A stretch of 64,000 bases of DNA, taken from a virus (Duplodnaviria; Heunggongvirae; Uroviricota; Caudoviricetes). The position numbers and the translations under genes were made by a program. The notes under the pieces were generated by a model. It searched no databases. It had not been told where the DNA came from and saw nothing but the letters and a program-made list of their open reading frames with translations. Positions 1-39,132 of the stretch are shown piece after piece (within the stretch, counting starts at the first letter, position 1; every line of letters begins with the position of its first letter). The DNA lies in IMG/VR virus record IMGVR_UViG_2651869695_000003. One strand, 5' to 3'.

Positions 1-566
1 GCTGGGTGTTGTCTGTTGTGCGTCGGGATCTCGGTTTTGATGATAGTCACGTTGTGACAATACCGGAACTGTGCTGGTGGCTGATTCGTAATGACCTGGC
101 GGATGCCTTACCGGAAAGTGCAGCCCGTAAGGCACTGAGATTACCGAAGCCTGTTGTGCAGGCGGTCACCCGGGAAAGTGACCTTGTGCCTTCGGTTCCT
201 GCCACCAGCATTATCCAGGATAAAGCGAAAAAGGTGCTGGCGCTGAAAGTGGATCCGGAGTCGCTGGAGTCTTTTATGTTACGCCCAAAACGCCGCCGCT
301 GGGTTAATGAAAAGTACACGCGCTGGGTTAAGACACAGCCGTGTGCATGTTGTGGAAAGCCTGCTGATGATCCCCACCACCTGATAGGTCACGGTCAGGG
401 TGGAATGGGTACAAAAGCGCATGACCTCTTTGTGTTGCCTTTGTGCAGAAAGCATCACGACGAGCTGCATGCGGATACCGTGGCATTTGAAGAGAAGTAT
501 GGCTCCCAACTGGAGCTGATATTTCGTTTTATCGATCGCGCGCTGGCGATTGGGGTGTTGGCCTGA
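1..566 (+). CDS. DUF968-like protein with Cys/His-rich HNH-like motif, 5'-truncated by window edge
   Basis: C-terminal 186 aa of the 331-aa protein encoded in full at 46150..47145; motif CACCGKPADDPHHLIGHG...CRKHHDELH; sits just upstream of Q. Confidence 0.5.
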   Translation, partial: WVLSVVRRDLGFDDSHVVTIPELCWWLIRNDLADALPESAARKALRLPKPVVQAVTRESDLVPSVPATSIIQDKAKKVLALKVDPESLESFMLRPKRRRWVNEKYTRWVKTQPCACCGKPADDPHHLIGHGQGGMGTKAHDLFVLPLCRKHHDELHADTVAFEEKYGSQLELIFRFIDRALAIGVLA

Positions 567-583
567 TTTGGTGGAGAAAGTTG

Positions 584-949
584 ATGCGTGATATTCAGAT
601 GGTTCTGGAGCGTTGGGGAGCATGGGCGGCGAGTGATAGTTCTGGAGTAGACTATTCGCCTATAGCTGCTGGGTTTAAGGGGCTTCTTCCCTACACAAGC
701 AAAACACGTCAGGCTTGTTCAGATAGTGATGCATTAATTATTGAAGGTTGTCTTGCTCGTCTAAAGCAAAAAAAGCCAGATGAGCACTCGCTGCTTGTGG
801 CACATTATTTATACAGAATATCCAAGCGTAAGATTGCAAAGGTGCGTGGAAAGGATGAAAAATTGGTACGCATAGAAATACAACTAGCCGAAGGATTTAT
901 TGATGGTTGCCTTTCAATGTTGGATTTTAACCTTGAAATGGACGCTTAG
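584..949 (+). CDS. Antitermination protein Q (lambdoid late-gene regulator)
   Basis: N-terminus MRDIQMVLERWGAWAA recalled as Q-family signature; position between nin-like genes and the lysis cassette; ATG at 584 preferred over track start 581. Confidence 0.6.
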   Translation: MRDIQMVLERWGAWAASDSSGVDYSPIAAGFKGLLPYTSKTRQACSDSDALIIEGCLARLKQKKPDEHSLLVAHYLYRISKRKIAKVRGKDEKLVRIEIQLAEGFIDGCLSMLDFNLEMDA

Positions 950-984
950 GGTTGCACAGGTTGGCCCCATATGAGGCCAACCTG

Positions 985-1446
985 TCACAAGTGGGGGAAG
1001 ATTTTTCGTAACACTAACCAACACCTTCCGAAGGTATATAGCGAAATTATAAGGGAGGATAAGCCTAACAGTATGAACAGGAAATCAATAGGTTTGCCCG
1101 CAACAATAACATCATCAGGTAGAAACATCGCTATCAATGGAAATATACATGCGACGATGAGAGTTAACCCTGTTGAAAGTAATCTATTTACCAGAGTTGG
1201 TAACACGTTGTTTTGCTTAAGGGCATTAATTGCTCCTTCCTTATCGCTGTTTGCACTACTAAATATAGATATTGCAGCCAGAACAAAACCAAACAGGATG
1301 CCTGATATAGTCGAGAGCACCCCCGCTGTTGTGAGTACGTCAGCATGCTTCATCGGTTTAAACAGTTTTGTCGCTGCATAGGTCAACAGAATCCAGAGGA
1401 CGCATTTCCAGAGAAAAGTGGCTAATTCTCTCATTGTGTCCTCCAT
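985..1446 (-). CDS. Small integral membrane protein (about 4 predicted TM helices), candidate RexB-like partner
   Basis: 153 aa with four hydrophobic stretches; low-GC; immediately downstream of the 313-aa ORF on the same strand, opposite to phage late genes. Confidence 0.45.
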   Translation of the reverse strand: MEDTMRELATFLWKCVLWILLTYAATKLFKPMKHADVLTTAGVLSTISGILFGFVLAAISIFSSANSDKEGAINALKQNNVLPTLVNRLLSTGLTLIVACIFPLIAMFLPDDVIVAGKPIDFLFILLGLSSLIISLYTFGRCWLVLRKIFPHL

Positions 1447-1455
1447 GCTTGGTTA

Positions 1456-2397
1456 TTAGTCTCTGCTAGCGAGCTCATACTGTGCAAGATAGTTCGCGTT
1501 ATCAATTTTAGCAGATATCATCGCCGTTCTGATATCAGAATCGGATGGATAACCGCTTTTGACAATGATTGTCTTTGTACTGACCAATACTTGGTCAAGT
1601 AGACTTTTGGGCGTTCTATTGGATGGCTCTGTTACATCAATTTTTTTAATTTTTAGACCTCCAGAACCTTTTGGAAAAAGTTCAAGTAGTTCCTTAATAG
1701 CATCGGTGACAGAAGTTTTTAGATAGTTAAACCCTTGTTTTTTCGGGCGAATCCGACCTCGCATATTTAATCTTAGATGCGACCCGCCCATACCAACAAC
1801 CATGTCAATAATTTCATTAGCTAAAGGGTTTTTAATCTTATAATTAGCTTTGTTAAAGTTTCTTGGAGCAGCAACTATAAGATCGAAACTACGTAGGATA
1901 TTTCCGTCCTCAAGCAGTTCCTTCATGCTCTCTTGTTTCCAAATGGCTTCAAAAGTGACGCTTTTTAAATCAGTTTTGTTATACAAAATGAATGCCAGAT
2001 CATTTACTTTGGGCCCTATATGGTTGAGGGTCATAGCTAATAAGTCCGTTTCGTAGTAATAGATAAAATATGTTCTTTCAACTACAGAATCTTTATCATT
2101 TAAAGGAATTGTTCTCTCACTACCTGTAGCATCCTCGATGAACGGTAGTAGGCATTCCCTTCTCCACGATACGTAACCAAAGTAACATTGCAGTGTGGTA
2201 TCTTTTTGAAGAATAACTAACTTTAACCCTCGACTTGGGGTGTCTGTTGTGTAAGTTATTGGAAAAGTTACAGTATCTGCTGTGGTCATTTGCTCAAAGG
2301 CTAGTTTTGCAGCAGATGTGCCATATTTTTTGCTTCCATTACCAGTGAAAAAACCAACTCTCACTCGCCTGGTTTTATTCTTATTTTCTGTACTCAT
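1456..2397 (-). CDS. Hypothetical 313-aa protein, candidate RexA-like abortive-infection component
   Basis: Low-GC ORF in moron position between Q and holin; soluble protein followed by 4-TM protein mimics rexA-rexB architecture; similarity to RexA is by eye only. Confidence 0.4.
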   Translation of the reverse strand: MSTENKNKTRRVRVGFFTGNGSKKYGTSAAKLAFEQMTTADTVTFPITYTTDTPSRGLKLVILQKDTTLQCYFGYVSWRRECLLPFIEDATGSERTIPLNDKDSVVERTYFIYYYETDLLAMTLNHIGPKVNDLAFILYNKTDLKSVTFEAIWKQESMKELLEDGNILRSFDLIVAAPRNFNKANYKIKNPLANEIIDMVVGMGGSHLRLNMRGRIRPKKQGFNYLKTSVTDAIKELLELFPKGSGGLKIKKIDVTEPSNRTPKSLLDQVLVSTKTIIVKSGYPSDSDIRTAMISAKIDNANYLAQYELASRD

Positions 2398-2520
2398 TAT
2401 CGATCCGAAATAATTTTAGCAACCGTGTGAAAAATACAACAAAAAAAAGAGGAAATCATTAGCGCGGTCCGCAAAAAACATTGTAATCTGTTAAGAGTGG
2501 TTACTTCGCCACACAGCTTA

Positions 2521-2550
2521 AACCCGCCGTCGAGCGGGTTTTGTCGTTTC
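2521..2550 (+). terminator. Rho-independent terminator-like hairpin, candidate tR' of the late leader
   Basis: AACCCGC-cgtcga-GCGGGTT followed by TTGTCGTTTC, about 145 bp upstream of the holin start. Confidence 0.35.
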
Positions 2551-2693
2551 TGTGGCTGGGGATTCGTTGGTCCTGGCCTATTCCGCAGTTCTCCATCGGT
2601 TCGGCTTCTTTGATGTTTCCGCTTCTGATTTGCGGTACATGATGTTCCCTCAATTTGCACCTGCTGTATCAGCGAGGTGAGAGATAACTACAA

Positions 2694-3020
2694 ATGCCTC
2701 ATAACCCAAATACCTGGCTGGAGTTGGTCCAGAGCTGGTGGCGTGGAGACACACCGCTGGGCGCAGTGATTATGTCGATCGTTATGGCTGGCTTGCGCAT
2801 TGCCTATTTTGGCGGTGGTGGTGGCTGGAAACGAAAAACGCTCGAGATTTTGCTCTGTGGTGCTCTGACGCTGACTTTTGCATCCGCTCTTGAGTATGTC
2901 GGATGGCCTAAATCTCTTTCTGTTGCCATTGGTGGCGGCGTTGGGCTGATCGGGGTCGATGCTATTCGTGGGGCTGCAATGAGAGTAATCGGTAATAAGT
3001 TTGGTGGCTCTAAGGAGTAA
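2694..3020 (+). CDS. Holin
   Basis: 108 aa, hydrophobic segments, first gene of lysis cassette directly before the R-like endolysin. Confidence 0.7.
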   Translation: MPHNPNTWLELVQSWWRGDTPLGAVIMSIVMAGLRIAYFGGGGGWKRKTLEILLCGALTLTFASALEYVGWPKSLSVAIGGGVGLIGVDAIRGAAMRVIGNKFGGSKE

Positions 3021-3023
3021 TTT

Positions 3024-3506
3024 ATGCAGGTACTAAATTCCCAGCGTAAAGCTTTCCTCGATATGGTGGCATGGTCAGAAGGAACGGATAACGGGCGACA
3101 ACCGACACGTAACCACGGTTATGACGTTATTGTCGGAGGTGAACTGTTCACTGATTACTCCGATCACCCTCGCAAACTTGTCACGCTAAACCCGAAACTT
3201 AAATCAACAGCCGCAGGACGTTATCAGCTTCTTTCACGCTGGTGGGATGCTTACCGTAAGCAGCTTGGGCTGAAAGACTTCTCTCCAAAAAGCCAGGATG
3301 CTGTGGCATTGCAGCAGATTAAAGAGCGTGGTGCTTTACCGATGATTGATCGCGGCGATATCCGTCAGGCTATTGATCGTTGCAGCAATATCTGGGCGTC
3401 ATTGCCGGGCGCTGGTTATGGTCAGTTCGAACATAAGGTTGACAGCCTGATTGAAAAATTCAAAGAATCGGGCGGAACGGTCAGAGAAATTCAGCTATAT
3501 GAGTAG
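3024..3506 (+). CDS. R: Endolysin, lambda R-like lytic transglycosylase
   Basis: Near-identical over long stretches to lambda R as recalled ([92 protein letters not shown]). Confidence 0.85.
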
Positions 3507-3963
3507 AGTAACTGCGATTCTGTCCTCTCTGGTTATCTGCACCATCGTCTGCCTATCATGGGCTGTTAATCATTATCGTGATAACGCCATCGCCTACAAA
3601 GAACAGCGCGATAAAGCGAAGGAAAAACTCAGCCAGGCGAACGCCACCATTACTGAGATGCAGCAGCGCCAGCGTGATGTTTCTGCGCTCGATGCGAAAT
3701 ACACCGGAGAACTTGCAAATGCTAAAGCAACTATTGAACAGCTTCAGCGTGATGTTGCTGTTGGCACTAAGCGGCTGTTCCTCGCCGCTAGTTGCCCGAG
3801 AGTGCAATCAACGACCATTACCACCAGCCTGGATGATGCTACCGCCCCCCGACTTACTGACACCGCTCAACGGGATTATTTCACCCTCAGAGAGAGAATT
3901 GAAATCAGTTATAAACAGATAAGAGCATTGCAGGACTATATCTCTAGTCAGTGTGAAAAATAA
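3499..3963 (+). CDS. Rz: Rz i-spanin
   Basis: [31 protein letters not shown] matches lambda Rz N-terminus; start moved to internal Met overlapping R stop. Confidence 0.85.
3719..3922 (+). CDS. Rz1: Rz1 o-spanin lipoprotein, embedded in +1 frame of Rz
   Basis: Signal/lipobox LLLALSGC followed by proline-rich [26 protein letters not shown] as in lambda Rz1. Confidence 0.7.
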
Positions 3964-4044
3964 AATTGCTTTCGATGTATGGATCTGGACATCTTTTTTT
4001 TCTACTATGCTGACTGAGAATTGAAACGTATATGGATATTCTAT

Positions 4045-4803
4045 ATGAAAAGAAAAAAATTAGAAGGTCCCGGGTGTGAATCATATGAAGGGTTAGATGT
4101 TGAATATTATATTGATTCCGAAACGGGGGAATTTAAAGCGGTTTATACATTCAATAATGAAATTGTAGATCGCATAAAATTGAGTGGGCGTATTGCCGAT
4201 AGAGCATCTTCACTGTCCCTAATTCATAGGGACTTAAAAAGTGCTAAAGAGTGGTACCAAATAGCTAATGAACTGGCAGGGAGAAACGAATTAAGGACAG
4301 ATGGCAAGTTATACGGGAATATACTTGATCTAGATTTATCAAGTGAAATTAGAGCGTTATTTGTGGCAAGCCTAACGTTTTATGGTAAAGCTTTCTCTGA
4401 AGCTAAAGGGAGAAAGTTAAAGATGGAGCGTGATTGGCTTGATTCTGAATATTTTGGGTTGCATGACTGTATTATTAACTACAGGCATAATTTTGCAGCA
4501 CATAGCGGCAACCAAGACTATGAGTCAGCAGAAACTTCATTGTTACTAATAAGGAAAAATGGGAAAACATTTTATCAAGCAGTGACAGATAGAAAACAAC
4601 TGAGCATGATTGGTGTCGAGGACGAGCATGTTGATATGATTAATTTATTTGAACATGCGATACAGGTTGTTGAGAAAAAATATAATGAAACATTAGAGAG
4701 AATTAGAACCTATGTCATGCAAAAGAGTTATTCTTTTTGGTGTTTAGCTGCCACAGGGAAAGATCCCGTCAATTTAGATAAGTTAAATAAGAAGAAAAAA
4801 TAA
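4045..4803 (+). CDS. Hypothetical protein, AT-rich moron (candidate abortive-infection or defence gene)
   Basis: Low GC compared with flanking phage genes; followed by a candidate terminator (4840..4869); lies between Rz and HNH/terS; contains YRHNFAAH (R-x5-H). Confidence 0.5.
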   Translation: MKRKKLEGPGCESYEGLDVEYYIDSETGEFKAVYTFNNEIVDRIKLSGRIADRASSLSLIHRDLKSAKEWYQIANELAGRNELRTDGKLYGNILDLDLSSEIRALFVASLTFYGKAFSEAKGRKLKMERDWLDSEYFGLHDCIINYRHNFAAHSGNQDYESAETSLLLIRKNGKTFYQAVTDRKQLSMIGVEDEHVDMINLFEHAIQVVEKKYNETLERIRTYVMQKSYSFWCLAATGKDPVNLDKLNKKKK

Positions 4804-4839
4804 ACCTACTCTTCACATTAGTAACATTAGTAGATGCTA

Positions 4840-4869
4840 AGCCACTAGCAATCGATGGTGGCTTTTTTA
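4840..4869 (+). terminator. Rho-independent terminator after moron gene
   Basis: AGCCAC-loop-GTGGCT followed by TTTTTTATT. Confidence 0.5.
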
Positions 4870-4882
4870 TTGGAGCTTACCA

Positions 4883-5233
4883 ATGCCACCACGAACCCCA
4901 AAAGCCTGCCGTGTTCGCGGCTGCCGCTCTACAACCACAGACCCGTCAGGCTACTGCGAAAGCCACAAAAGCGAAGGCTGGAAGCAATACAAGCCAGGTC
5001 AGTCCCGTCATCAGCGCGGTTATGGTTCGAAGTGGGACGCTATCCGCGCGCGTGTGCTGAAGCGTGACAAAGGTTTATGTCAGTTATGTCTGCGTGCCGG
5101 TGTGGTGCGTGAGGCGAAAACCGTTGACCACATCATCCCTAAAGCGCATGGCGGCACTGATGCCGACTGTAATCTGCAGAGTCTGTGTTGGCCGTGTCAT
5201 AAGGCGAAGACGGCCCGTGAACGGTTAAAGTGA
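4883..5233 (+). CDS. HNH endonuclease (terminase-associated)
   Basis: Cys/His motifs CRVRGC...C and DHIIPKAHGG...CWPCH; directly upstream of cos-like region and terS as in HK97-like phages. Confidence 0.8.
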   Translation: MPPRTPKACRVRGCRSTTTDPSGYCESHKSEGWKQYKPGQSRHQRGYGSKWDAIRARVLKRDKGLCQLCLRAGVVREAKTVDHIIPKAHGGTDADCNLQSLCWPCHKAKTARERLK

Positions 5234-5239
5234 TAATAA

Positions 5240-5340
5240 CTCTCAACTGTCTGAGGGGAGGGGCGGGTCACATCCCTGTGACCTGACGTCTTCCGGACTG
5301 CCCGCCCCATCGTTTTTTTATACCCGCGAAAAATGAAATT
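5240..5340. other. Candidate cos / packaging site region
   Basis: GC-rich dyad GGGGCGGG...CCCGCCCC enclosing palindrome GTCACAtcccTGTGAC between HNH and terS. Confidence 0.3.
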
Positions 5341-5358
5341 TAACCAGGAGTGCCGCAT

Positions 5359-5853
5359 ATGGCTGGAACGACGGGGCGTTCCGGGCGTCGCCCCAAGCCA
5401 ACGGCGCGCAAGGCGCTGGCCGGAAATCCCGGCAAGCGAGCCCTGAACAAAGATGAACCTGTTTTTACGCCCATCAAAGGTGTTGAGCCACCGGAGTGGT
5501 TCGCTGAAGAAGATCTCCCTCTCGCCACGATCATGTGGCAACTGACAACCAAAGAACTCTGCGGTCAGGGCCTGCTGTGCGTGACTGACCTCGCGGTGCT
5601 TGAGCGGTGGTGCGTGGCCTACGAGTTCTGGCGACGTGCCGTGAAAAATATTGCCAGACAGGGCAACACCATCACCGGTGCAATGGGCGGTATGGTCAAA
5701 AATCCGGAGCTGACCGCCAAAAAAGAACAGGAGTCCGAGATGAGCAGTACGGGGGCAATGCTCGGACTCGACCCCAGCAGCCGCCAGCGTCTGATTGGCC
5801 TGGCGGGGAAGAAGAAAGCCACTAACCCGTTTCTGAAAATCATCGAATCATGA
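5359..5853 (+). CDS. Terminase small subunit
   Basis: Basic N-terminus, immediately upstream of and overlapping terL; ATG at 5359 with GGAG upstream. Confidence 0.7.
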
Positions 5854-7583
5854 GCCGGAAATCTTACCCCAACGTAAATGCTGCCAATCAGTATGCCCGG
5901 GATGTCGTGCGCGGAAAGATTGTGGCCTGCCAGTTTGTGATTCAGGCCTGCCAGCGCCATCTTGATGACCTGATGGCGGAAAAAAGTAAGTCGTTTCGTT
6001 ACCGCTTCGACAAGGACCTGGCTGAACGGGCCGCCAAATTTATTCAGCTGTTGCCGCACACCAAGGGTGAGTGGGCATTCAAGAGGATGCCCATCACGCT
6101 GGAGCCGTGGCAGCTCTTTGTGATCTGCTGCGCGTTTGGCTGGGTCAATAAAGGCTCCCGGCTGCGCCGCTTCAGGGAGGTGTATACCGAAATCCCCCGT
6201 AAGAACGGCAAATCGGCAATCTCTGCCGGTGTCGCTCTGTATTGTTTTGCCTGTGATAACGAGTTCGGCGCGGAAGTGTATTCCGGTGCCACGACGGAGA
6301 AACAGGCATGGGAAGTCTTTCGCCCGGCGCGACTGATGTGTAAACGCACACCAATGCTGACGGAAGCGTTCGGGATTGAGGTTAACGCCTCAAACATGAA
6401 CCGTCCGGAGGATGGCGCGCGGTTTGAACCGCTGATCGGTAACCCCGGTGATGGTTCATCACCCCACTGTGCGGTGGTGGATGAATATCACGAGCACGCC
6501 ACCGATGCGCTTTACACCACGATGCTTACCGGGATGGGGGCGCGACGTCAGCCACTGATGTGGGCCATTACTACTGCCGGGTACAACATTGAGGGGCCGT
6601 GCTACGACAAGCGGCGGGAAGTTATCGAGATGCTCAACGGGTCGGTGCCTAACGATGAACTGTTCGGGATCATCTATACCGTTGATGAAGGTGACGACTG
6701 GACCGACCCGCAGGTGCTGGAAAAAGCCAATCCAAATATTGGCGTGTCGGTTTATCGCGAATTTTTGTTAAGTCAGCAACAGCGTGCGAAAAATAACGCC
6801 CGTCTGGCAAACGTCTTTAAAACAAAACACCTCAATATCTGGGTGTCGGCGCGTTCGGCGTATTTCAACCTGGTGAGCTGGCAGAGCTGCGAGGATAAAT
6901 CACTGACCCTTGAGCAGTTCGAGGGGCAGCCGTGCATTCTGGCCTTTGACTTGGCGCGTAAACTGGATATGAACAGCATGGCGCGACTTTATACCCGCGA
7001 GATTGACGGTAAAACGCATTACTACAGTGTGGCCCCGCGTTTCTGGGTACCGTATGACACGGTGTACAGCGTCGAGAAAAATGAAGATCGACGGACAGCC
7101 GAACGCTTTCAGAAATGGGTGGAAATGGGCGTTCTGACCGTTACCGATGGTGCGGAAGTGGATTATCGCTACATCCTCGAGGAGGCCAAAGCGGCGAACA
7201 AAATCAGCCCGGTCAGTGAGTCACCCATCGACCCCTTCGGGGCGACCGGGCTGTCACATGACCTTGCTGATGAAGACCTGAACCCCATCACTATCATTCA
7301 GAACTACACCAACATGTCCGATCCGATGAAAGAGCTGGAAGCGGCAATTGAATCGGGGCGCTTTCATCATGATGGCAATCCCATCATGACCTGGTGTATC
7401 GGCAACGTGGTCGGCAAAACCATTCCGGGTAACGATGATGTGGTGAAGCCCGTCAAAGAGCAGGCGGAAAACAAAATCGATGGTGCAGTTGCGCTGATTA
7501 TGGCGGTTGGCAGAGCCATGCTGTACGAGAAAGAAGACACGCTGTCTGACCACATTGAGTCCTATGGGATCCGCTCGCTTTAA
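5850..7583 (+). CDS. Terminase large subunit
   Basis: 577 aa; ATPase-like motifs (RKNGKS, VVDEYHE) and nuclease domain; canonical position. Confidence 0.9.
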
Positions 7584-7594
7584 CTGAGGTAATT

Positions 7595-7777
7595 ATGATC
7601 ATGCTGATTCTCGCGCCTCTGGTGGGCGTGCTGGGGGCGCTTTTGCTGGCGTATGGTGCCTGGCTGATTTATCCCCCGGCGGGGTTTGTTGTTGCCGGGG
7701 CGTTGTGTCTGTTCTGGTCGTGGCTGGTGGCGCGATATCTCGACCGTACACAGTCGTCTGTCGGCGGAGGTAAATAG
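7595..7777 (+). CDS. Small hydrophobic protein
   Basis: 60 aa, two hydrophobic segments, between terL and portal. Confidence 0.4.
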
Positions 7778-9018
7778 TGTTCTTTTCGGGATTATTTCAA
7801 CGAAAAAGTGACGCACCAGTGACCACGCCAGCAGAGCTGGCGGATGCTATCGGGTTGTCCTACGACACCTATATCGGAAAGCAGATCAGCAGCCAGCGGG
7901 CCATGCGACTGACGGCGGTTTTTTCCTGCGTCAGGGTGCTGGCAGAGTCGGTCGGGATGTTGCCCTGCAATCTGTATCACCTGAACGGCAGCCTGAAAAA
8001 GAGAGCCACCGGCGAGCGTCTGCATAAGCTGATCTCCACGCATCCCAATGGCTATATGACGCCGCAGGAGTTCTGGGAGCTGGTGGTCACCTGTCTGTGC
8101 TTGCGGGGAAACTTTTACGCCTACAAAGTGAAAGGATTTGGCGAAGTGGCTGAACTGCTGCCCGTCGATCCCGGCTGTGTGGTACCGAAGCTTAACAGTA
8201 GCTGGGAGCCGGTCTATCAGGTCACATTCCCGGACGGCTCCACGGATGTACTGAGCCAGGAAGATATCTGGCATGTGCGCACGCTGACGCTGGACGGTCT
8301 GGTGGGACTGAATCCCATCGCCTATGCCCGCGAGGCAATATCGCTGGCAGCTGCGACCGAAGAGCACGGGGCCAGACTGTTCAGCAATGGTGCGGTGACG
8401 TCCGGTGTGTTGCGTACAGAGCAGACGCTGTCGGATCAGGCTTATGAGCGCCTGAAGAAAGATTTTGAGGAGCGTCACACCGGGCTTGGCAATGCTCACC
8501 GCCCGATGATCCTTGAGATGGGGCTGGACTGGAAGTCGATGGCGCTGAACGCCGAGGACAGCCAGTTCCTGGAAACCCGCAAGTTTCAGCTTGAAGAAAT
8601 CTGTCGTCTGTTCCGGGTGCCATTGCACATGGTGCAGAACACCGATCGCGCCACCTTCAACAATATCGAAGAGCTGGGGCTGGGATTTATCAACTATTCA
8701 CTGGTGCCGTATCTGACCCGCATTGAGCAGCGGATCAACACCGGACTGGTACGAAAAAGTAAGCAGGGCGTTTATTACGCCAAATTTAACGCCGGGGCGT
8801 TACTGCGCGGGGATATGAAGTCCCGTTTTGAAGCCTACGCCACCGGTATCAACTGGGGAATTTACTCTCCCAATGACTGCCGCGACCTGGAAGATATGAA
8901 TCCGCGTCCCGGTGGGGATGTCTATCTCACGCCGATGAATATGACCACGAAACCCTCCGATGGCAGTAAAGCCGGTAAGCAGAAGGATAACGCCAATGCA
9001 GACGAAACAACGTCTTGA
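7777..9018 (+). CDS. Portal protein (HK97 family)
   Basis: 413 aa; follows terminase; GTG start overlapping previous stop. Confidence 0.85.
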   Translation: MFFSGLFQRKSDAPVTTPAELADAIGLSYDTYIGKQISSQRAMRLTAVFSCVRVLAESVGMLPCNLYHLNGSLKKRATGERLHKLISTHPNGYMTPQEFWELVVTCLCLRGNFYAYKVKGFGEVAELLPVDPGCVVPKLNSSWEPVYQVTFPDGSTDVLSQEDIWHVRTLTLDGLVGLNPIAYAREAISLAAATEEHGARLFSNGAVTSGVLRTEQTLSDQAYERLKKDFEERHTGLGNAHRPMILEMGLDWKSMALNAEDSQFLETRKFQLEEICRLFRVPLHMVQNTDRATFNNIEELGLGFINYSLVPYLTRIEQRINTGLVRKSKQGVYYAKFNAGALLRGDMKSRFEAYATGINWGIYSPNDCRDLEDMNPRPGGDVYLTPMNMTTKPSDGSKAGKQKDNANADETTS

Positions 9019-9646
9019 TGTACCGCTGAGTCTGAAATCTGTCAGTGACTCCGGTGAGTTTGAAGGGTATGGCTCCGTCTTTGGTGTAAAGGACAGCCAC
9101 GATGATGTGGTGATGTCCGGGGCATTTGCTGCTTCCCTGCGGGCGTGGAGTGACAGAAAAGCGTTACCTGCGCTGCTCTGGCAGCACCGCATGGATGAGC
9201 CCATCGGTGTTTACACCGAAATGAAGGAAGACGATGTCGGGCTTTACGTCAGGGGGCGATTGCTCATTGATGATGATCCCCTGGCAAAACGCGCACATGC
9301 ACACATGAAGGCCGGTTCGTTAACCGGCCTTTCTATTGGGTACGTCCTGAAGGACTGGGAATACGACCGGACGAAAGAAGCCTTTCTGCTGAAAGAAATC
9401 GACCTCTGGGAAGTCAGTCTGGTGACGTTCCCGTCTAACGACGAGGCACGGATCAGCGACGTCAAGAACGCGCTGGCTCGCGGGGAAATCCCCGAACAGA
9501 AAAAAATCGAAAGAGTCCTGCGTGATGTCGGACTCTCCCGTACCCAGGCCAAAGCATTCATGGCCGGGGGCTATAGCGCACTGTCCCTGCGCGACGCTGA
9601 GGATGTGAGCTCTGCACTGAATGCACTGAAAAATCTGAACTTCTAA
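8996..9646 (+). CDS. Prohead (head maturation) protease
   Basis: Between portal and major capsid protein; start set to internal Met with AAGGA upstream. Confidence 0.75.
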   Translation: MQTKQRLDVPLSLKSVSDSGEFEGYGSVFGVKDSHDDVVMSGAFAASLRAWSDRKALPALLWQHRMDEPIGVYTEMKEDDVGLYVRGRLLIDDDPLAKRAHAHMKAGSLTGLSIGYVLKDWEYDRTKEAFLLKEIDLWEVSLVTFPSNDEARISDVKNALARGEIPEQKKIERVLRDVGLSRTQAKAFMAGGYSALSLRDAEDVSSALNALKNLNF

Positions 9647-9660
9647 TCAGGAGAAATACG

Positions 9661-10866
9661 ATGGCGGTAGATATTAAAGATGTCGAACAGGTCGCGCAGG
9701 AGCTGCAGCAGAAGTTTGACGACTTCAAAGCAAAGAACGACAAGCGCGTGGATGCGATTGAGCAGGAAAAAGGCAAGCTTGCCGGACAGGTGGAAACCCT
9801 GAACGGGAAACTCAGCGAGCTGGAAAATCTCAAAAGCGACCTTGAAAAAGAGCTGCTTGAGCTGAAACGTCCGGCAGGTGGATCGCAAAATAAACTGGCC
9901 ACCGAGCATAAAGAGGCGTTTGTGGGCTTCCTGCGTAAAGGCCGTGAAGACGGTCTGCGCGATCTGGAGCGTAAGGCATTGCAGGTGGGCACCGATGAAG
10001 ACGGTGGCTACGCCGTGCCGGAAGAACTGGATCGCAACATTCTTAACCTGCTGAAAGATGAAGTGGTGATGCGTCAGGAAGCCACGGTGATCACCGTTGG
10101 CGGTTCCGACTACAAAAAACTGGTGAATCTGGGCGGTACGGCTTCCGGATGGGTGGGGGAAACGGATACGCGATCCCAGACTGCCACCTCCAGACTGGAG
10201 CTGATTGAACCTCTCATGGGGGAAATCTACGGCAACCCGCAGGCTACCCAGAAAATGCTGGACGATGCCTTCTTCAACGTGGAGGCCTGGATCAACAGCG
10301 AGCTGGCGACCGAATTTGCCGAACAGGAAGAAATTGCCTTTACCACCGGCGATGGTACCAAGAAGCCAAAAGGGTTCCTGGCGTATGAATCTACTGATGA
10401 AACCGATAAGATCCGGGCGTTCGGCAAACTTCAGCATATTGTATCCGGCGAAGCGACCGCGGTGACCGCAGACGCCATTATCAAACTGATTTACACGCTG
10501 CGTAAGGCACACCGCACTGGCGCGAAGTTCATGATGAACAACAACAGCCTGTTTGCCATCCGTCTGCTGAAAGACACCGAGGGTAACTATCTGTGGCGTC
10601 CGGGGCTGGAACTGGGGCAGCCGTCCTCTCTGGCGGGTTACGGTATCGCTGAAAACGAACAGATGCCGGATATCGCCGCTGATGCGAAAGCCATTGCATT
10701 TGGTAACTTCAAACGGGGTTACACCATCGTTGACCGTATCGGCACCCGCATTCTGCGTGACCCGTACACCAATAAACCGTTTGTCGGTTTTTATACCACC
10801 AAGCGCACCGGCGGGATGCTGGTCGATTCGCAGGCCATCAAACTGCTGAAGATTGCAGCGGCGTAA
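9661..10866 (+). CDS. Major capsid protein (HK97 fold) with N-terminal coiled-coil delta domain
   Basis: 401 aa; coiled-coil N-terminus then capsid core; follows protease. Confidence 0.85.
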   Translation: MAVDIKDVEQVAQELQQKFDDFKAKNDKRVDAIEQEKGKLAGQVETLNGKLSELENLKSDLEKELLELKRPAGGSQNKLATEHKEAFVGFLRKGREDGLRDLERKALQVGTDEDGGYAVPEELDRNILNLLKDEVVMRQEATVITVGGSDYKKLVNLGGTASGWVGETDTRSQTATSRLELIEPLMGEIYGNPQATQKMLDDAFFNVEAWINSELATEFAEQEEIAFTTGDGTKKPKGFLAYESTDETDKIRAFGKLQHIVSGEATAVTADAIIKLIYTLRKAHRTGAKFMMNNNSLFAIRLLKDTEGNYLWRPGLELGQPSSLAGYGIAENEQMPDIAADAKAIAFGNFKRGYTIVDRIGTRILRDPYTNKPFVGFYTTKRTGGMLVDSQAIKLLKIAAA

Positions 10867-10873
10867 TCACTCA

Positions 10874-10894
10874 GGGGCGCGGAACCGCGCCCCC
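10874..10894 (+). terminator. GC-rich hairpin after capsid gene
   Basis: GGGGCGCGG-aa-CCGCGCCCC; no strong T-tract, so likely a stabilising or partial terminator. Confidence 0.3.
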
Positions 10895-10915
10895 TGTTCT
10901 GACGGGTGAAGAATC

Positions 10916-11116
10916 ATGATCCTGAAACAAGATCTGAAATGGTCACCGGACGGTATGCGTGTTGAGGTCATTCGGGCCGGTGAGTATGACGACGGGGCGC
11001 TTCCTGCCCGGGTGCAGGAGATTGCACTTCAGGCCGGGTTAGCAGAGCGCGGAATCAGTGCAAAAAGCAGTAAAGCGGCAAAAGAGAAAAAAGCCACGAC
11101 CAGTAAAGAGGGCTGA
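10916..11116 (+). CDS. Hypothetical small protein
   Basis: 66-aa ORF between capsid and head-tail connector genes. Confidence 0.35.
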   Translation: MILKQDLKWSPDGMRVEVIRAGEYDDGALPARVQEIALQAGLAERGISAKSSKAAKEKKATTSKEG

Positions 11117-11118
11117 GT

Positions 11119-11442
11119 ATGCTTCTGACAATGGAAGAGATTAAAGCCCAACTCCGGCTGGATGAGGATTTCGATGCTGATGACCGCCATCTGCAACTGC
11201 TGGCCTGTGCGGCACAAAAGCGGACGGAAACGTATCTGAACCGGAAGCTCTATGCACCGGATGAAACCATTCCGGACAGCGATCCGGACGGGCTGCACCT
11301 GCCGGATGATATTCGTCTGGGGATGCTGATGCTTATCAGCCATTTTTACGAAAACCGCTCGTCGGTTACGGAAGTGGAGAAACTCGACATGCCGCAGAGT
11401 TTTGGCTGGCTTGTCGGCCCGTACAGGTACTTTCCGCAATGA
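11119..11442 (+). CDS. Head-tail connector (gp6-like)
   Basis: 107 aa, position after capsid, overlapping stop-start with next gene. Confidence 0.55.
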   Translation: MLLTMEEIKAQLRLDEDFDADDRHLQLLACAAQKRTETYLNRKLYAPDETIPDSDPDGLHLPDDIRLGMLMLISHFYENRSSVTEVEKLDMPQSFGWLVGPYRYFPQ

Positions 11443-11849
11443 AAATTCGTCAGGCGCAGACCAGCGCAACCTACATTCTGCCGGACCCCGGTGAACTGAA
11501 TAAACGCGTCCTGATCCGCCAGCGGGTGGATATGCCCGCGGATAACTTTGGCGTGGAGCCTCAATACCCGGTTACGTTCCGGACATGGGCGAAGGTTATC
11601 CAGACCAGTGCCACCACCTGGCAGGAAACCGCGCAGACCGGGGACGCCATCACCCATTACATCACCATTCGTTACCGCCGGGGGATCACCGCTGATTATG
11701 AGGTGGTCTGCGGTGACAGTGTGTACCGGGTGAAACGTCAGCGCGATCTGAACGGGGCGCGGCGCTTTCTGCTGCTGGAGTGTACGGAGCTGGGCGAATG
11801 TGGGCAGAGTCACGGAGGCAACAATGACGACTTCCTTTTTGCACGTTGA
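11439..11849 (+). CDS. Head closure / head-tail adaptor protein
   Basis: 136 aa, synteny. Confidence 0.5.
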   Translation: MKIRQAQTSATYILPDPGELNKRVLIRQRVDMPADNFGVEPQYPVTFRTWAKVIQTSATTWQETAQTGDAITHYITIRYRRGITADYEVVCGDSVYRVKRQRDLNGARRFLLLECTELGECGQSHGGNNDDFLFAR

Positions 11850-12330
11850 TTTTCAGCAGCCCGCGGAGATGCGCTTTAACCGCGCCCGTGTCCGGCGGGC
11901 GTTTGTCACGATTGGTCAGCGTCATATGCGTGATGCCCGTCGGCTGGTGATGCGCCGTGCGCGGTCGGCACCGGGTGAAAACCCCGGTTATCAGACCGGA
12001 CGCCTGGCTCGTTCGATTGGTTACATGGTACCCAGAGCCAGTAAACATCGCCCTGGTTTTATGGCACGTATAGCCCCTAACCAGCGTAATGGAGAGGGAA
12101 ACCGCCGTATCACCGGTGATTTTTATCCGGCTTTTTTGTTCTATGGCGTGAGGCGAGGGGCAAAGCGTCGTCGCAGCCATCATCGTGGTGCATCCGGTGG
12201 CAGCGGCTGGCGACTGGCTCCACGTAATAACTTCATGGTGGAAACGCTTGAAAAGAACCGCAGCTGGACACGCTATTTTCTGGCGCGGGAATTGCGTAAA
12301 TCACTGAAGCCGGAGCGACGACACAGATGA
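11824..12330 (+). CDS. HK97 gp10-like tail-component protein
   Basis: Synteny; ATG with GGAGG upstream. Confidence 0.5.
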   Translation: MTTSFLHVDFQQPAEMRFNRARVRRAFVTIGQRHMRDARRLVMRRARSAPGENPGYQTGRLARSIGYMVPRASKHRPGFMARIAPNQRNGEGNRRITGDFYPAFLFYGVRRGAKRRRSHHRGASGGSGWRLAPRNNFMVETLEKNRSWTRYFLARELRKSLKPERRHR

Positions 12331-12887
12331 AACTGACGCCTGTTATTGCTGCACTGCGTGCCCGCTGTCCATATTTTGAAAACCGGGTTGCAGGCGCGGC
12401 CCAGTTCAAAAATCTGCCGGAGGTCGGAAAGCTGAAACTCCCGGCGGCATATGTTGTACCGGGTGATGATTCTCCGGGAGAAAACAAAAGCCAGACCGAC
12501 TACTGGCAGGAGCTGAAAGAGGGCTTCTCCGTGGTTGTCATACTGAGTAACGGGCGTGATGAGCGCGGTCAGTTTGCTTCGTATGATGTGGTGGACGATG
12601 TCCGGCAGATGCTCTTTAAGGCCCTGCTGGGCTGGAACCCGGAAGCGTGCGGTAACCCGATTAACTATGACGGCGGCACGCTGCTGGATCTGAATCGTCA
12701 TGAGCTGATTTATCAGTTCGATTTTTCGATCATCAGCGAGCTGACCGAAGACGATACCCGCCAGCAGGATGACCTGAACAGTCTGGATGAACTGCGAACG
12801 CTGGCGATTGATGTTGATTATCTCGATCCCGGTAACGGGCCTGACGGCGATATCGAACATCACACCGAAATAACCCTTCCTTCCTGA
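12327..12887 (+). CDS. Tail protein (Mu gp37-like, possible tail terminator)
   Basis: 186 aa directly upstream of sheath gene. Confidence 0.4.
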   Translation: MKLTPVIAALRARCPYFENRVAGAAQFKNLPEVGKLKLPAAYVVPGDDSPGENKSQTDYWQELKEGFSVVVILSNGRDERGQFASYDVVDDVRQMLFKALLGWNPEACGNPINYDGGTLLDLNRHELIYQFDFSIISELTEDDTRQQDDLNSLDELRTLAIDVDYLDPGNGPDGDIEHHTEITLPS

Positions 12888-13049
12888 GAATCTTCATGTT
12901 TGTGAAACCTGTTAAAGGGCGGTCAGTGCCTGACCCTGCCCGCGGTGACCTTTTGCCCGCCGAAGGGCGAAATGTTGACGAGAACAACTACTGGCTGCGC
13001 CGTGAAGCAGCGGGTGATATCCGGCGCGTGAATAAAAAGGTGAACACCG

Positions 13050-14546
13050 ATGACGATAAGCTTTAACACCATTCCGTCGAATACGCTGGTTCCGCTGTTT
13101 TATGCGGAAATGGATAACCAGGCGGCGAATACTGCACAGGACAACGGAGCATCGCTGCTGATTGGTCATGCCAATAACGGTGCAGAGATTGTTGCCAACA
13201 GTCTGGTGCTGATGCCGTCGGCAGACTATGCACGCCAGATTTGTGGTGCGGGAAGTCAGCTGGCGCGTATGGTCGAGGCTTATCGCCAGACCGACCCGTT
13301 TGGTGAGCTGTATGTGATTGCCGTTCCGGAAGCCACAGGCGCGGCGGCAACGGTTACGCTGACGGTGACCGGGGAAGCAACCGAAAGCGGCACGGTGAAT
13401 GTCTATGTGGGACGTACCCGCGTGCAGGCTCCGGTGACCAACGGCGATAACGTCACGACGATTGCCAGCAGTATCAAAGATGCCATCAATGCCGTTCCGA
13501 CTCTGCCGTTTACAGCTTCATCTTCGGCTGGCGTGGTCACACTGACCGCGCGTCATAAGGGGCTTTGCGGGAATGAAATTCCTGTCAGCCTCAATTACTA
13601 CGGCTTCGGTGGGGGCGAAGTGCTGCCAGCGGGCGTACAGATTGCCGTGGCGACGGGGAACGCCGGAACGGGCGCTCCTGTTCTCACCGGCGCGGTGGCT
13701 GCAATGGCGGATGAGCCGTTTGATTATATCGGCCTGCCGTTCAACGACACGGCCTCCGTTAACACGCTGGTGACCGAGATGAACGATACCAGCGGTCGCT
13801 GGAGCTATGCGCGTCAGCTGTATGGTCATGTGTATACGGCAAAGATCGGCACGCTGTCAGAACTGGTGACCGCAGGTGACCAGTTTAACCAGCAGCACAT
13901 TACCCTAGCGGGGTACGAAAAAGACACCCAGACGCCTGCCGACGAGCTGGCGGCAAGCCGTACCGCCCGCGCAGCGGTGTTTATCCGCAACGATCCGGCA
14001 CGTCCCACGCAGACCGGTGAGCTGGTGGGTATGCTGCCTGCGCCGAAGGGGAAACGGTTCACGATGACCGAGCAGCAGACCCTGCTGTCTCATGGCGTGG
14101 CAACGGCGTATGTCGAAAGCGGGGTGCTGCGCATTCAGCGTGATGTCACCACGTACAGGAAAAATGCTTACGGGGTTGCGGATAACAGCTACCTCGACAG
14201 CGAGACGCTGCATACCAGTGCGTATGTACTGCGCAAACTGAAATCCGTCATTACCAGTAAGTACGGGCGTCACAAGCTTGCCAGCGACGGTACCCGCTTT
14301 GGTCCCGGTCAGGCGATTGTCACCCCGGCGGTAATCAAAGGGGAACTGCTGGCAACCTACCGTCAGCTTGAGCGTGCGGGGATCGTGGAAAACTACGAAC
14401 TGTTTAAGCAGTACCTGGTTGTGGAGCGTGATGCCAGCGATCCGAACCGCCTGAACACGCTGTTCCCGCCTGACTATGTTAACCAGTTGCGTGTTTTTGC
14501 CGTGGTTAACCAGTTCCGTCTTCAGTATTCAGAGGAGTCTGCATAA
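13050..14546 (+). CDS. Contractile tail sheath protein
   Basis: 498 aa, followed by tube, chaperone with frameshift, and tape measure. Confidence 0.75.
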   Translation: MTISFNTIPSNTLVPLFYAEMDNQAANTAQDNGASLLIGHANNGAEIVANSLVLMPSADYARQICGAGSQLARMVEAYRQTDPFGELYVIAVPEATGAAATVTLTVTGEATESGTVNVYVGRTRVQAPVTNGDNVTTIASSIKDAINAVPTLPFTASSSAGVVTLTARHKGLCGNEIPVSLNYYGFGGGEVLPAGVQIAVATGNAGTGAPVLTGAVAAMADEPFDYIGLPFNDTASVNTLVTEMNDTSGRWSYARQLYGHVYTAKIGTLSELVTAGDQFNQQHITLAGYEKDTQTPADELAASRTARAAVFIRNDPARPTQTGELVGMLPAPKGKRFTMTEQQTLLSHGVATAYVESGVLRIQRDVTTYRKNAYGVADNSYLDSETLHTSAYVLRKLKSVITSKYGRHKLASDGTRFGPGQAIVTPAVIKGELLATYRQLERAGIVENYELFKQYLVVERDASDPNRLNTLFPPDYVNQLRVFAVVNQFRLQYSEESA

Positions 14547-14902
14547 TGGCCCGTATCGGGGGAACCTGTTATTTCAAAATTGACGGTCAGCAGCTATCGC
14601 TGACCGGCGGCATTGAGGTGCCCATGAACAGGACGGTCAATGATGACATCATCGGCCTGGACGGTTCAGTGGACCGCAAGGAAACTCACCGTGCGCCTTA
14701 TGTCAAAGGGACCTTCAAGGTGCCGAAGAATTTTCCGGTGAGCAAAATCACCTCGTCTGATGAGATGACCATCACTGCCGAGCTGGCGAACGGTCAGGTC
14801 TATGTATTGTCGTCCGCCTGGCTGCACGGAGAAGCGAACCATAATGCCGAAGAAGGCACGGTTGATCTTGAGTTCCACGGTGAAGAAGGGGATTACCAGT
14901 AA
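14546..14902 (+). CDS. Tail tube protein
   Basis: 118 aa directly after sheath. Confidence 0.65.
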   Translation: MARIGGTCYFKIDGQQLSLTGGIEVPMNRTVNDDIIGLDGSVDRKETHRAPYVKGTFKVPKNFPVSKITSSDEMTITAELANGQVYVLSSAWLHGEANHNAEEGTVDLEFHGEEGDYQ

Positions 14903-15171
14903 TGAAAGAGCTTGAGTTAAAGAAACCGATTATCGCTCATGGTGAGACACTCTCCGTACTGGAGTTTGATGAACCCACCGGGAAGGATGTCCGCGAGCTG
15001 GGGTATCCCTACCAGATGAATCAGGATGAGTCCGTCAGACTTCTGGCGCATGTGGTGTCGAAATACATTGTGCGGCTGGCGAAAGTGCCGCAAAGCTCTG
15101 TCGACCAGATGTCTCCGGCAGACCTGAATGCAGCGGCGTGGCTTGTGGCTGGTTTTTTCCTCCAGGCCTGA
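14902..15171 (+). CDS. Tail assembly chaperone (extended to 15320 by -1 frameshift)
   Basis: 89-aa ORF overlapped by a -1 frame ORF (15138..15320) that runs into the tape measure start. Confidence 0.6.
   Translation: MKELELKKPIIAHGETLSVLEFDEPTGKDVRELGYPYQMNQDESVRLLAHVVSKYIVRLAKVPQSSVDQMSPADLNAAAWLVAGFFLQA
15153..15159 (+). other. Slippery heptamer T_TTT_TTC for -1 programmed frameshift
   Basis: Zero-frame codons GGT TTT TTC near end of chaperone ORF; -1 frame stays open to 15320. Confidence 0.5.
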
Positions 15172-15312
15172 CGGCTGAATACCTCACTGATCGCTTCTTT
15201 GACTGCGCCAGTTACTGGCGCATTAATCCCTTCGAATTGCTGAATATGCCGATCAGTGAAATTCCCTTGCTGGTCAGTCAGGCAAACAGGATAGAGCAGG
15301 AGAAACGCACAC

Positions 15313-17148: not shown

Positions 17149-17208
17149 TGAAAAATTAATCTGTTAATGAGTCCCACTCCGGTGGGATTTTTTATGTACG
17201 GAGTTTAT

Positions 17209-18537
17209 ATGACGTGGAAAGACAGACTTCAGGACGCGTCATTTCGCGGTGTGCCGTTTAAGGTTGAAGAAGAAAGTGCGGGAACCGGTCGTCGTGTGGA
17301 AACGCACGAATACCCGAACCGCGACAAACCCTATACCGAAGACCTGGGGAAAATCACTTTCCGCCCGTCCATCACGGCTTATGTGGTGGGAGATGACTGC
17401 TTTGACCAGCGCGATCGCCTGATTGACGCGCTGAATAAACCCGGTCCCGGCACGCTTGTCCATCCGACTTACGGTGAGCTGAAAGTCTGTGTTGACGGAG
17501 AGGTTCGGGTCAGCACATCGAAGAGTGAAGGGCGTATTGTCCGCTTTGACCTGAAGTTTGTCGAAGCGGGAGAACTCTCTTACCCCACATCAGGTGCGGC
17601 GACGGCGCAGACGCTGATGTCATCCTGTTCTGCACTGGATGACTGCATCAGTGACAGTTTCAGTAGTTTCAGTATCGATGGCGTGGCAGATTTTGTGCAG
17701 AACGACGTCGTCGGTAATGCCAGCACAATGCTTGGGTATGTTTCTGATGCGATGAAAGTGGTGGATTCTGCCGTATCGGATGCCGCCAGGCTGTTGCAGG
17801 GGGATATCTCGGTACTTCTGCCGCCGCCATCGTCAGGCAAAAATTTCGTTGAGCAGGTGCAGAAAATGTGGCGTACCGGGAAACGCCTTTATGGTAACGC
17901 CAGCGACCTGGTCACCATGATCAAAACGCTTTCCGGTGTCAGCCTCGGCAGCGATCTGCAACCGCGCGGCGTCTGGAAAACGGACAGTAAAACCACCGCC
18001 ACGGCTACGCAGCAGCGTAACGTGGTTGCCAGCACCCTTCGTACGACCGCAATCAGCGAAGCGGCGTATGCCGTCACCCGATTGCCTGCGCCAACAACTT
18101 CCGCGGTGATGCAGAATGCCGCAGTGGGGCAGGCAACAACACCTGCGCAGAGCACTGGCTGGCCTTCCGTCACGCATCCGGCACTGAACAATGCACCGGC
18201 GGTGAAAAACACAGTTGACCTGCCGACGTGGGAAGAACTGACTGACATTCGCGACACACTGAATACGGCAATTGATAAGGAGTTGTCCCGTACAACCAGT
18301 GATGCGCTGTTTCTGGCGCTGCGCCGGGTGAAAGCAGATCTGAATGCGGATATCAACACGCGCCTTGAACAGTCTGCACGGATCATTCAGCGCACGCCGG
18401 ATGAGGTTTTACCCGCGCTGGTGCTGGCGGCGACCTGGTTTGATAACGCGGCGCGTGACGCGGACATTATCCGGCGTAATGCCATTACGCATCCCGGCTT
18501 TGTGCCGGTGATCCCTCTGAAGGTGCCAGTGCAATGA
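17209..18537 (+). CDS. DNA circularisation-like tail protein (Mu N-like)
   Basis: Follows tape measure in Mu-like order; start set to internal Met with GGAG upstream. Confidence 0.55.
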   Translation: MTWKDRLQDASFRGVPFKVEEESAGTGRRVETHEYPNRDKPYTEDLGKITFRPSITAYVVGDDCFDQRDRLIDALNKPGPGTLVHPTYGELKVCVDGEVRVSTSKSEGRIVRFDLKFVEAGELSYPTSGAATAQTLMSSCSALDDCISDSFSSFSIDGVADFVQNDVVGNASTMLGYVSDAMKVVDSAVSDAARLLQGDISVLLPPPSSGKNFVEQVQKMWRTGKRLYGNASDLVTMIKTLSGVSLGSDLQPRGVWKTDSKTTATATQQRNVVASTLRTTAISEAAYAVTRLPAPTTSAVMQNAAVGQATTPAQSTGWPSVTHPALNNAPAVKNTVDLPTWEELTDIRDTLNTAIDKELSRTTSDALFLALRRVKADLNADINTRLEQSARIIQRTPDEVLPALVLAATWFDNAARDADIIRRNAITHPGFVPVIPLKVPVQ

Positions 18538-22206: not shown

Positions 22207-22209
22207 TCC

Positions 22210-24506: not shown

Positions 24507-24509
24507 GGA

Positions 24510-29507: not shown

Positions 29508-29567
29508 ATAAACTCCGTACATAAAAAATCCCACCGGAGTGGGACTCATTAACAGATTAATTTTTCA

Positions 29568-31403: not shown

Positions 31404-31544
31404 GTGTGCGTTTCTCCTGCTCTATCCTGTTTGCCTGACTGACCAGCAAGGGAATTTCACTGATCGGCATATTCAGCAATTCGAAGGGATTAATGCGCCA
31501 GTAACTGGCGCAGTCAAAGAAGCGATCAGTGAGGTATTCAGCCG

Positions 31545-35597: not shown

Positions 35598-35599
35598 AC

Positions 35600-35800: not shown

Positions 35801-35849
35801 GATTCTTCACCCGTCAGAACAGGGGGCGCGGTTCCGCGCCCCTGAGTGA

Positions 35850-39121: not shown

Positions 39122-39132
39122 AATTACCTCAG

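Follow-up and report, generated by a model that had tools for sequence, protein, structure and literature searches.

The 64,000-nt stretch of DNA analysed here, IMG/VR virus record IMGVR_UViG_2651869695_000003, is referred to as the window, and all coordinates count from its first letter. Near its left end the window carries a cassette of two adjacent minus-strand genes, A and B, which encode a soluble protein and a small membrane protein, respectively (Table 1). To the left of the cassette, a DUF968/HNH-like gene and then the antiterminator gene Q are found on the plus strand. The holin, endolysin and spanin genes lie to the right of it, on the strand opposite to A and B. Two minus-strand open reading frames (ORFs) between Q and holin had been reported in the initial annotation, and they are indeed present at 1456..2397 (313 aa) and 985..1446 (153 aa). 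The low GC content ascribed to the cassette was confirmed: it amounts to 0.390, compared with 0.493 and 0.494 for the flanks and 0.510 for the window. The prophage around the cassette is a hybrid of lambdoid early genes and a contractile tail, and it is related to CPS-53/e14 genes; a 99.9% identical prophage is present in Escherichia coli R12 (RefSeq). The carrier is most likely an E. coli lambdoid/Mu-like hybrid prophage, with the cassette as its moron. As set out below, the cassette is a RexAB-type pair, and its distinctive trait is its location beside Q and not beside cI.

Table 1. Features of the cassette region and of its mirror copy in the 64,000-nt window.
Feature	Coordinates	Strand	Remarks
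Gene A	1456..2397	minus	313-aa soluble RexA-like protein, DUF6731 family; proposed sensor and DNA-binding component
Gene B	985..1434	minus	149-aa RexB-like four-helix membrane protein; proposed effector
Antiterminator Q (PF06530, Phage_antitermQ)	581..949	plus	Pfam E 4e-51; convergent with B
Lambda-family holin	2694..3020	plus	RefSeq annotation of the 99.9% identical E. coli prophage
Leader 5′ of A	2398..2459	minus	cassette-specific; putative own promoter
Conserved block	2460..2550	plus	putative late promoter/Q-utilisation region with terminator-like hairpin 2520..2541; marks right insertion boundary
Stem-loop, 11-bp perfect	956..985		between convergent Q and B, overlaps B stop codon; seen in the sequence
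Mirror copy of whole cassette	44319..45731	plus	inside inverted-repeat arm 24202..46715; 100% in self-BLAST

Prediction of the start codon of gene B required a correction. The mechanically called ORF begins at an ATG located 12 nt upstream of the likely true start. A Shine-Dalgarno sequence, GGAGGA, lies between this ATG and a second one at 1434, at a distance of 5 nt from the latter. In RefSeq (the E. coli R12 prophage) and in nearly all homologues the B protein is 149 aa long, and the hidden Markov model (HMM) of the B family begins at M5. The spacing of the GGAGGA sequence, the lengths of the homologues and the start of the family HMM thus argue that B most likely starts at the second ATG. 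The length of 153 aa given in the initial annotation is correct for the ORF, while the protein is likely to have 149 aa. With this start, the gap between A and B is 21 nt.

Neither of the two window proteins shows a significant match in Pfam, NCBIfam or PADLOC (2023 models), and both fall in PHROGs of unknown function. The affiliation of gene A becomes apparent from its relatives. Forty of the 51 aligned relatives match DUF6731 (PF20505), a Pfam model missed by window A itself, and relatives with 44-70% identity to A carry the name "DUF6731 family protein". On these sequence relationships gene A is assigned to the DUF6731 family. No paper was found in a literature search on DUF6731, PF20505 or the protein accessions, and the DefensePredictor paper mentions neither Rex nor DUF6731.

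The link between A and RexA was obtained by the comparison of profiles. Alignment with hhalign of a profile of 51 DUF6731 sequences to 23 RexA sequences gave a P value of 1.4e-3. When 132 DUF6731 representatives were compared with the same 23 sequences, the probability rose to 93.8% (P 1.8e-7) over 255 columns, corresponding to residues 12-293 of A and 2-273 of RexA, and the global mode yielded 96.3% (P 1.1e-9). The controls remained at P 0.16-0.46 for reversed sequences and at P 0.3-0.6 for cross-family comparisons. The alignment extends from the N-terminal strand (RVGFF in A, KNGFY in RexA) through a common "GP..DL" motif to the C-terminal helix. In the A model, the secondary-structure elements follow one another as in the published topology of RexA, in which a globular domain is split and combined with a beta/alpha dimerisation domain. 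The best structural match of the A model is a protein of the uncultured phage Siphoviridae sp. ctylc9. Judged by the profiles and the model, A is a remote homologue of RexA with a predicted RexA fold, and by analogy it is probably a DNA-binding dimer.

The product of gene B contains four hydrophobic segments on the Kyte-Doolittle scale, and its AlphaFold model shows four long helices (predicted local distance difference test score, pLDDT, 79.7), which agrees with the four transmembrane (TM) helices predicted before. The similarity of the B family to RexB is most evident in its distant members. The PADLOC RexB HMM matches four out of seven distant B partners with E values from 1.9e-7 to 5e-3: L008_B at 1.9e-7 (residues 20-133 on model positions 25-135 of 141), L010_B at 4.6e-5, L044_B at 1.6e-4 and L004_B at 5e-3. 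It is the sole match for three of these partners and the top match for the fourth. Collinear matches below threshold were obtained with the Pfam RexB model for two distant partners, and a RexB HMM built here from seven sequences reproduced the link to the B family. In hhalign, the whole B family aligned to seven diverse RexB sequences with P 2.3e-4 (reversed controls P 0.4-0.5), and the distant B subset reached a probability of 84% and P 7e-6 (reversed control P 0.4). The aligned stretch comprises the end of TM1, an H-x-D motif, TM2 (SGILFGFVLAAISI versus AGTMIAILIAALTF) and the next loop. A Foldseek search of the B model against viral structures returned as the best match a protein of Siphoviridae sp. 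ctylc9, the same phage as for A. The second best match was a 165-aa protein of mycobacteriophage Sbash (probability 1.00, TM-score 0.53/0.49), and the product of gene 31 of Sbash has exactly 165 aa. By sequence comparison and modelling B is thus regarded as a remote homologue of RexB, a predicted RexB-like inner-membrane protein.

Several results have to be set against this assignment. Window A has no match at E <= 1 to the RexA models (Pfam PF15969, PADLOC PDLC02339), and these models match none of the 51 members of the A family. The RexB models (Pfam PF15968, PADLOC PDLC02340) likewise match neither window B nor its 37-member clade. Lambda RexA was recovered by the Pfam and PADLOC Rex models at 1e-97 and 9e-110, and lambda RexA and RexB together gave E values from 1e-61 to 1e-110. 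As these positive controls match strongly, the lack of matches for the window proteins is a genuine negative. Pairwise BLASTP of window A and B against RexA and RexB found nothing significant, and searches of the PDB sequences by phmmer and with the family HMM returned just noise-level matches to eIF2-alpha. Since the clade of window B falls below the RexB model, its link to RexB is transitive and runs via the family. Taken with the profile alignments, we consider it very probable that both proteins are homologous to RexA and RexB. A RexAB-like module had been suggested in the initial annotation, with a profile or structure search named as the way to check it. Such searches revealed similarity for both genes, by RexA profiles for A and by RexB HMM, hhalign and Foldseek for B, and the suggestion has held up with regard to homology and architecture.

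The two genes travel together. Among 80 IMG/VR loci, which were found through B, A is located directly 5′ of B on the same strand in 79, with gaps of 2-28 nt; the single exception is cut by a contig end. In distant A relatives from metagenomes, an ORF of 138-170 aa follows immediately 3′ in all six cases. The products of these six ORFs have three to four hydrophobic segments in a crude Kyte-Doolittle scan and are homologous to window B by HMM, and the distant B partners score E 1e-32 to 2e-6 against window B. A and B are inherited as one unit. A Q homologue is found convergent with and just past B in 75 of 79 viral loci.

The full cassette is present in 73 of 5,426 complete E. coli genomes, where it is always annotated as "hypothetical protein (x2)". 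The phage cdtI, which converts its host to production of the cytolethal distending toxin (CDT), carries an orthologous pair of 313 and 147 aa in the same place, with about 50% identity in B. Homologues with 41-85% identity in A and 44-88% in B were found in Citrobacter, Serratia, Yersinia, Hafnia, Salmonella, Xenorhabdus, Pectobacterium, Proteus and Providencia. The occurrence of full-length homologues with 44-85% identity across Enterobacterales and the adjacency of the pair in 79 out of 80 viral loci indicate that A and B are real genes. When 1.84 billion representative proteins were searched exhaustively with a profile, only 168 relatives of A were recovered at E <= 1e-3, all of them about 280-320 aa long. 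Those with a name belong to Aeromonas, Pseudoalteromonas, Shewanella, Vibrio, Metapseudomonas and Thiococcus, and species-representative genomes (seven were found, with a narrower B alignment) add Endozoicomonas, Nitrosomonas and Desulfoluna. Vibrio cholerae is absent among these seven genomes, and the names of 30 DUF6731 clusters include no protein of V. cholerae, Salmonella Enteritidis or Pseudomonas putida. The distribution of the cassette is sporadic and its composition moron-like.

Some distant pairs of the family occur in settings that are not lambdoid. The L008 pair (1099..2492) adjoins a tyrosine integrase and a MerR regulator, the L006 pair (340..1621) lies beside tRNA genes, and the L044 pair (1389..2896) is located within a 14.6-kb Vibrio tectivirus-like element. 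In one cluster, A proteins from Shewanella, Pseudoalteromonas and Vibrio natriegens share at least 90% identity, and this identity over three genera indicates recent horizontal transfer. A search of the flanks of Vibrio-like contigs for words resembling the V. cholerae repeat (VCR)/attC gave nothing useful. The E. coli prophage L002, in which A is 44% identical, contains just beyond its lysis genes a 97-aa gene (3792..4085) with an Acb2/Tad1 hairpin domain, PF24729. This domain defines a family of sponges directed against Thoeris and against CBASS (cyclic oligonucleotide-based antiphage signalling system). Its presence in a prophage with a RexAB-like pair places defence and counter-defence cargo side by side.

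Compared with RexA and RexB of phage lambda (PF15969/PF15968; PDB 8TWQ), the window proteins share about 13% identity. The sizes are 313 and 149 aa for A and B and 279 and 144 aa for RexA and RexB, A being about 35 residues longer. Common to both systems is a gene for a soluble protein directly 5′ of a gene for a four-TM membrane protein. The genetic setting is different: lambda rexAB is part of the immunity operon behind cI, whereas A and B lie between Q and the putative late promoter, in antisense orientation and presumably under a promoter of their own. An experimentally validated Rex-like defence is encoded by genes gp30 and gp31 of Sbash, in which the central loop of gp31 is essential (PMC6426596). 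Together with gp44/gp43 of Gordonia phage CarolAnn, this system combines a sensor with a four-TM effector, and its conserved essential central loop finds a parallel in the conserved loop of B. The conserved residues of the TM2-TM3 loop of B are G67, A71, L72 and K73, and by analogy this loop is a candidate site for contact with A. The Sbash pair is also located away from the repressor, just after the lysis genes, and gp30 has 372 aa. No profile similarity was detected between gp30/gp31 and either A/B or lambda RexAB, the hhalign scores of 10-17 being equal to those of reversed controls. As the Sbash pair lacks profile similarity to lambda RexAB, the A/B cassette is closer to lambda RexAB by sequence than is an accepted Rex-like system. 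In the RexABpp system of P. putida (PP_5643/PP_5644), RexB becomes toxic when RexA is over-produced (PMC12894663). The RexABpp genes are found downstream of a CI-like repressor, whereas A and B are found by Q, and the two are likened here by description only.

A close parallel in the literature is Sucellos (SclA/SclB), cassette 68 of the V. cholerae superintegron (Darracq et al., bioRxiv 10.1101/2024.07.02.601686; Science 2025). Both of its genes are required, it acts by abortive infection, SclB is a predicted membrane pore, and the system has its own promoter (10.1101/2024.07.02.601686). It is structurally RexAB-like and missed by Pfam models, and beyond Vibrio it resides mostly in prophages, commonly in enterobacterial ones (10.1101/2024.07.02.601686). 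The published description, which is the only basis of this comparison, fits the A/B cassette closely, and DUF6731 pairs also occur in Vibrio, Shewanella and Pseudoalteromonas. About 98% of the S. Enteritidis isolates of phage types PT1 and PT4 are reported to carry Sucellos, while the Salmonella relatives of A and B form small clusters with 40 contigs. With a prevalence so different from the small size of these clusters, the Salmonella Sucellos is not a close relative of A and B. By analogy, A/B and Sucellos may nevertheless belong to the same family.

Two unpublished PADLOC candidates without known mechanism, PDC-M67 and PDC-M53, were also compared. PDC-M67A weakly matches six of the 51 A-family members, and PDC-M67B matches five of the 37 members of the window B clade as well as L005_B, at E values of about 1e-3 to 5e-3. 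Window A and window B themselves match neither PDC-M67 nor PDC-M53. The weak matches within the family imply that PDC-M67 probably represents a sister family. For PDC-M53, similarity to A and B is limited to one weak match to B. RdgC, the recombination-associated DNA-binding protein of E. coli, matches A less well than RexA does, has no membrane partner and is found in a housekeeping context. Recognition by structure or remote homology alone has precedents among RexAB-type systems, namely those of actinobacteriophages, of P. putida (2026) and Sucellos (2024/2025).

About 100 bp at 2443..2542 are 88-94% identical to the DNA directly 3′ of Q in phages without the cassette (PhiR49_2, SfII and others), and in SfII this block lies upstream of the holin gene. 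The block that follows Q is also matched in cdtI, and in three diverged cassette contexts it is conserved 5′ of gene A. In the terminator scan its hairpin is followed by a T run. From these features we infer that the conserved block contains a putative late promoter/Q-utilisation region with a short-transcript terminator. If so, the cassette would be located between Q and the late promoter and would stay outside the late transcript. Genes of Shiga toxin (Stx) are located downstream of the late promoter. The initial annotation had regarded the locus as the classic site for morons and toxins in lambdoid phages; this is right with regard to the position between Q and holin, but the cassette precedes the putative late promoter and is not part of the late transcript. 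In the reference prophage the repressor-like genes are located to the left, at a distance of about 6 kb, and the cassette, between Q and holin, is antisense to both the early and the late operon.

The 60-nt leader between gene A and the block holds an extended -10-like sequence, TGCTAAAAT, at 2413..2421 on the minus strand, which was read by eye. The consensus promoter scan at its threshold called no site on either strand, so the proposed promoter of A rests on this reading by eye. The leader is not conserved with the cassettes of cdtI or L002, whereas the block beyond it is. The match with PhiR49_2 starts 10 nt before the stop codon of Q in that phage, and the last few bases of another allele of Q therefore seem to be preserved in the window at 2443..2452, on the right-hand side of the cassette. 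This remnant is possibly the scar of a recombination event that brought Q and the cassette.

The same slot between Q and holin is occupied in SfII, in the same orientation, by another pair (834..2448, minus strand). It consists of SfII_50 (340 aa, soluble) and SfII_49 (194 aa, four hydrophobic segments), which are identified as the PADLOC candidate PDC-M53A/B with E values of 1.9e-32 and 2.8e-54. The slot thus carries alternative defence candidates. These occupants suggest that, in this group of phages, defence genes can be exchanged in the interval from Q to the late promoter. A stronger version of this idea would make the wiring itself functional. Convergent early transcription through Q would silence the suicide module as soon as the prophage enters its own lytic programme, as a self-immunity switch, or a RexA-like DNA clamp would time late expression by acting on the late promoter/Q-utilisation region, and in either case the gap would be a dedicated exchangeable defence slot with PDC-M53 as the other cargo in SfII; we regard this as a tentative and rather unlikely extension.

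We propose that the cassette is a divergent RexAB-type module that would act by abortive infection, with A as the sensor and B as the membrane effector, and by analogy with the known systems we assign this full mechanism a probability of about 65%. In the lysogen the pair would be expressed from its own promoter, and the translation of B, which lies 21 nt downstream, would be closely coupled to that of A. Upon infection by another phage, A, as a putative DNA-binding dimer, would be triggered by an infection cue and would activate B. Activated B would permeabilise or depolarise the membrane, and the infected cell would die or stop growing before the cycle of the invader is completed. Lambda RexAB, Sbash gp30/31, P. 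putida RexABpp and V. cholerae Sucellos served as models for this mechanism.

The linkage to Q raises the question of whether A and B might instead serve the development of the phage itself, with A as a clamp that tunes the transition from lysogeny to lysis or the timing of late genes. Lambda RexA is described as biasing the CI/Cro switch independently of RexB (PMC11077077). The linkage to Q in 75 of 79 loci and the leader of A that abuts the conserved block downstream of Q would also fit such a role. The L008, L006 and Vibrio tectivirus-like pairs, however, lie outside the Q/lysis context, and B is always retained, which points to a membrane effector as the purpose of the module. A developmental role is therefore unlikely.

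The adjacent holin, endolysin and spanin genes and the nature of B as a small multi-helix membrane protein bring a further reading into play. The pair might be an addiction module resembling a toxin-antitoxin system or a lysis accessory, in which a holin- or antiholin-like B is controlled by A and stabilises the prophage or modulates lysis. The toxicity of RexB under over-production of RexA in P. putida (PMC12894663) is in line with it. Transcription of the pair, however, runs away from the lysis operon, and B shows no similarity to holin families at E <= 1 apart from noise-level matches. In islands and in the tectivirus-like element the pair occurs without lysis genes, and the homology of B is specifically to RexB. 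We consider this reading quite improbable. A holin-like role of B taken by itself was rejected on the missing holin-family match and the strand opposite to the lysis genes. Least credible, at a very low probability, is a reading in which A modulates recombination on phage or host DNA in the manner of RdgC and B is an unrelated membrane fellow traveller; an RdgC-type role of A was rejected, as the match to RdgC is weaker than that to RexA. The RexAB-type defence module is thus preferred.

Two further features near the cassette deserve mention. The stem-loop between Q and B has a predicted folding free energy (dG) of -21.4 kcal/mol for the plus-strand RNA and of -27.3 kcal/mol for the minus-strand RNA. 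It was left uncalled in the terminator scan because a T run (U-tract) is absent, and it is possibly a bidirectional terminator or an RNA stabiliser. A second low-GC ORF (GC 0.351) is located at 4021..4803 on the plus strand between the spanin gene and the HNH/terminase genes. It encodes 260 aa (252 aa in RefSeq) and belongs to PHROG 8440, which is of unknown function; its product has no match in Pfam, NCBIfam or PADLOC. By composition and position this ORF looks like a further moron, oriented with the late operon.

A duplication of the cassette at 44319..45731 had been reported in the initial annotation. This segment is an exact reverse complement of the cassette, so the copy exists, but a duplication specific to the cassette was rejected, the second copy being just a part of a 22.5-kb mirror repeat. 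In self-BLAST, positions 1..22514 of the window are the perfect reverse complement of 24202..46715, and half of the prophage is therefore mirrored. The mirrored part runs from the DUF968 gene through the tail genes, around a unique centre of 1.7 kb (22515..24201). As the left arm ends only at the start of the window, the mirror may extend further. The centre of the repeat falls in the region of the tail-fibre and tail-fibre-assembly genes, where the opposed ORFs resemble the arrangement of an invertible host-range segment. Among the complete E. coli genomes of the collection, none spans the repeat junction, and the best place covers 69% of a 4.7-kb probe. The mirror may be either a foldback assembly artefact at the inverted repeats of an invertible segment or an inverted duplication of very recent origin.

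Among the known phage-exclusion systems RexAB is the oldest, yet how it works and how far it has spread are still poorly understood. DUF6731, a family of unknown function, and its obligate membrane partner are now linked to RexA and RexB. Such pairs are present in E. coli prophages, one of them the CDT-converting cdtI, as well as in several classes of proteobacteria, and they are missed by the 2023 PADLOC models and the Pfam Rex models. If the family proved to be Sucellos, the value of the finding would shrink to an annotation and a note on genomic context. The result serves as a useful annotation and as a convenient E. coli model but will not surprise specialists. The gap between Q and the late promoter has been identified as a slot for alternative defence candidates, and the cassette itself provides an easily testable relative of RexAB that is native to E. 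coli and stands in a different regulatory context, that of Q and not of cI.

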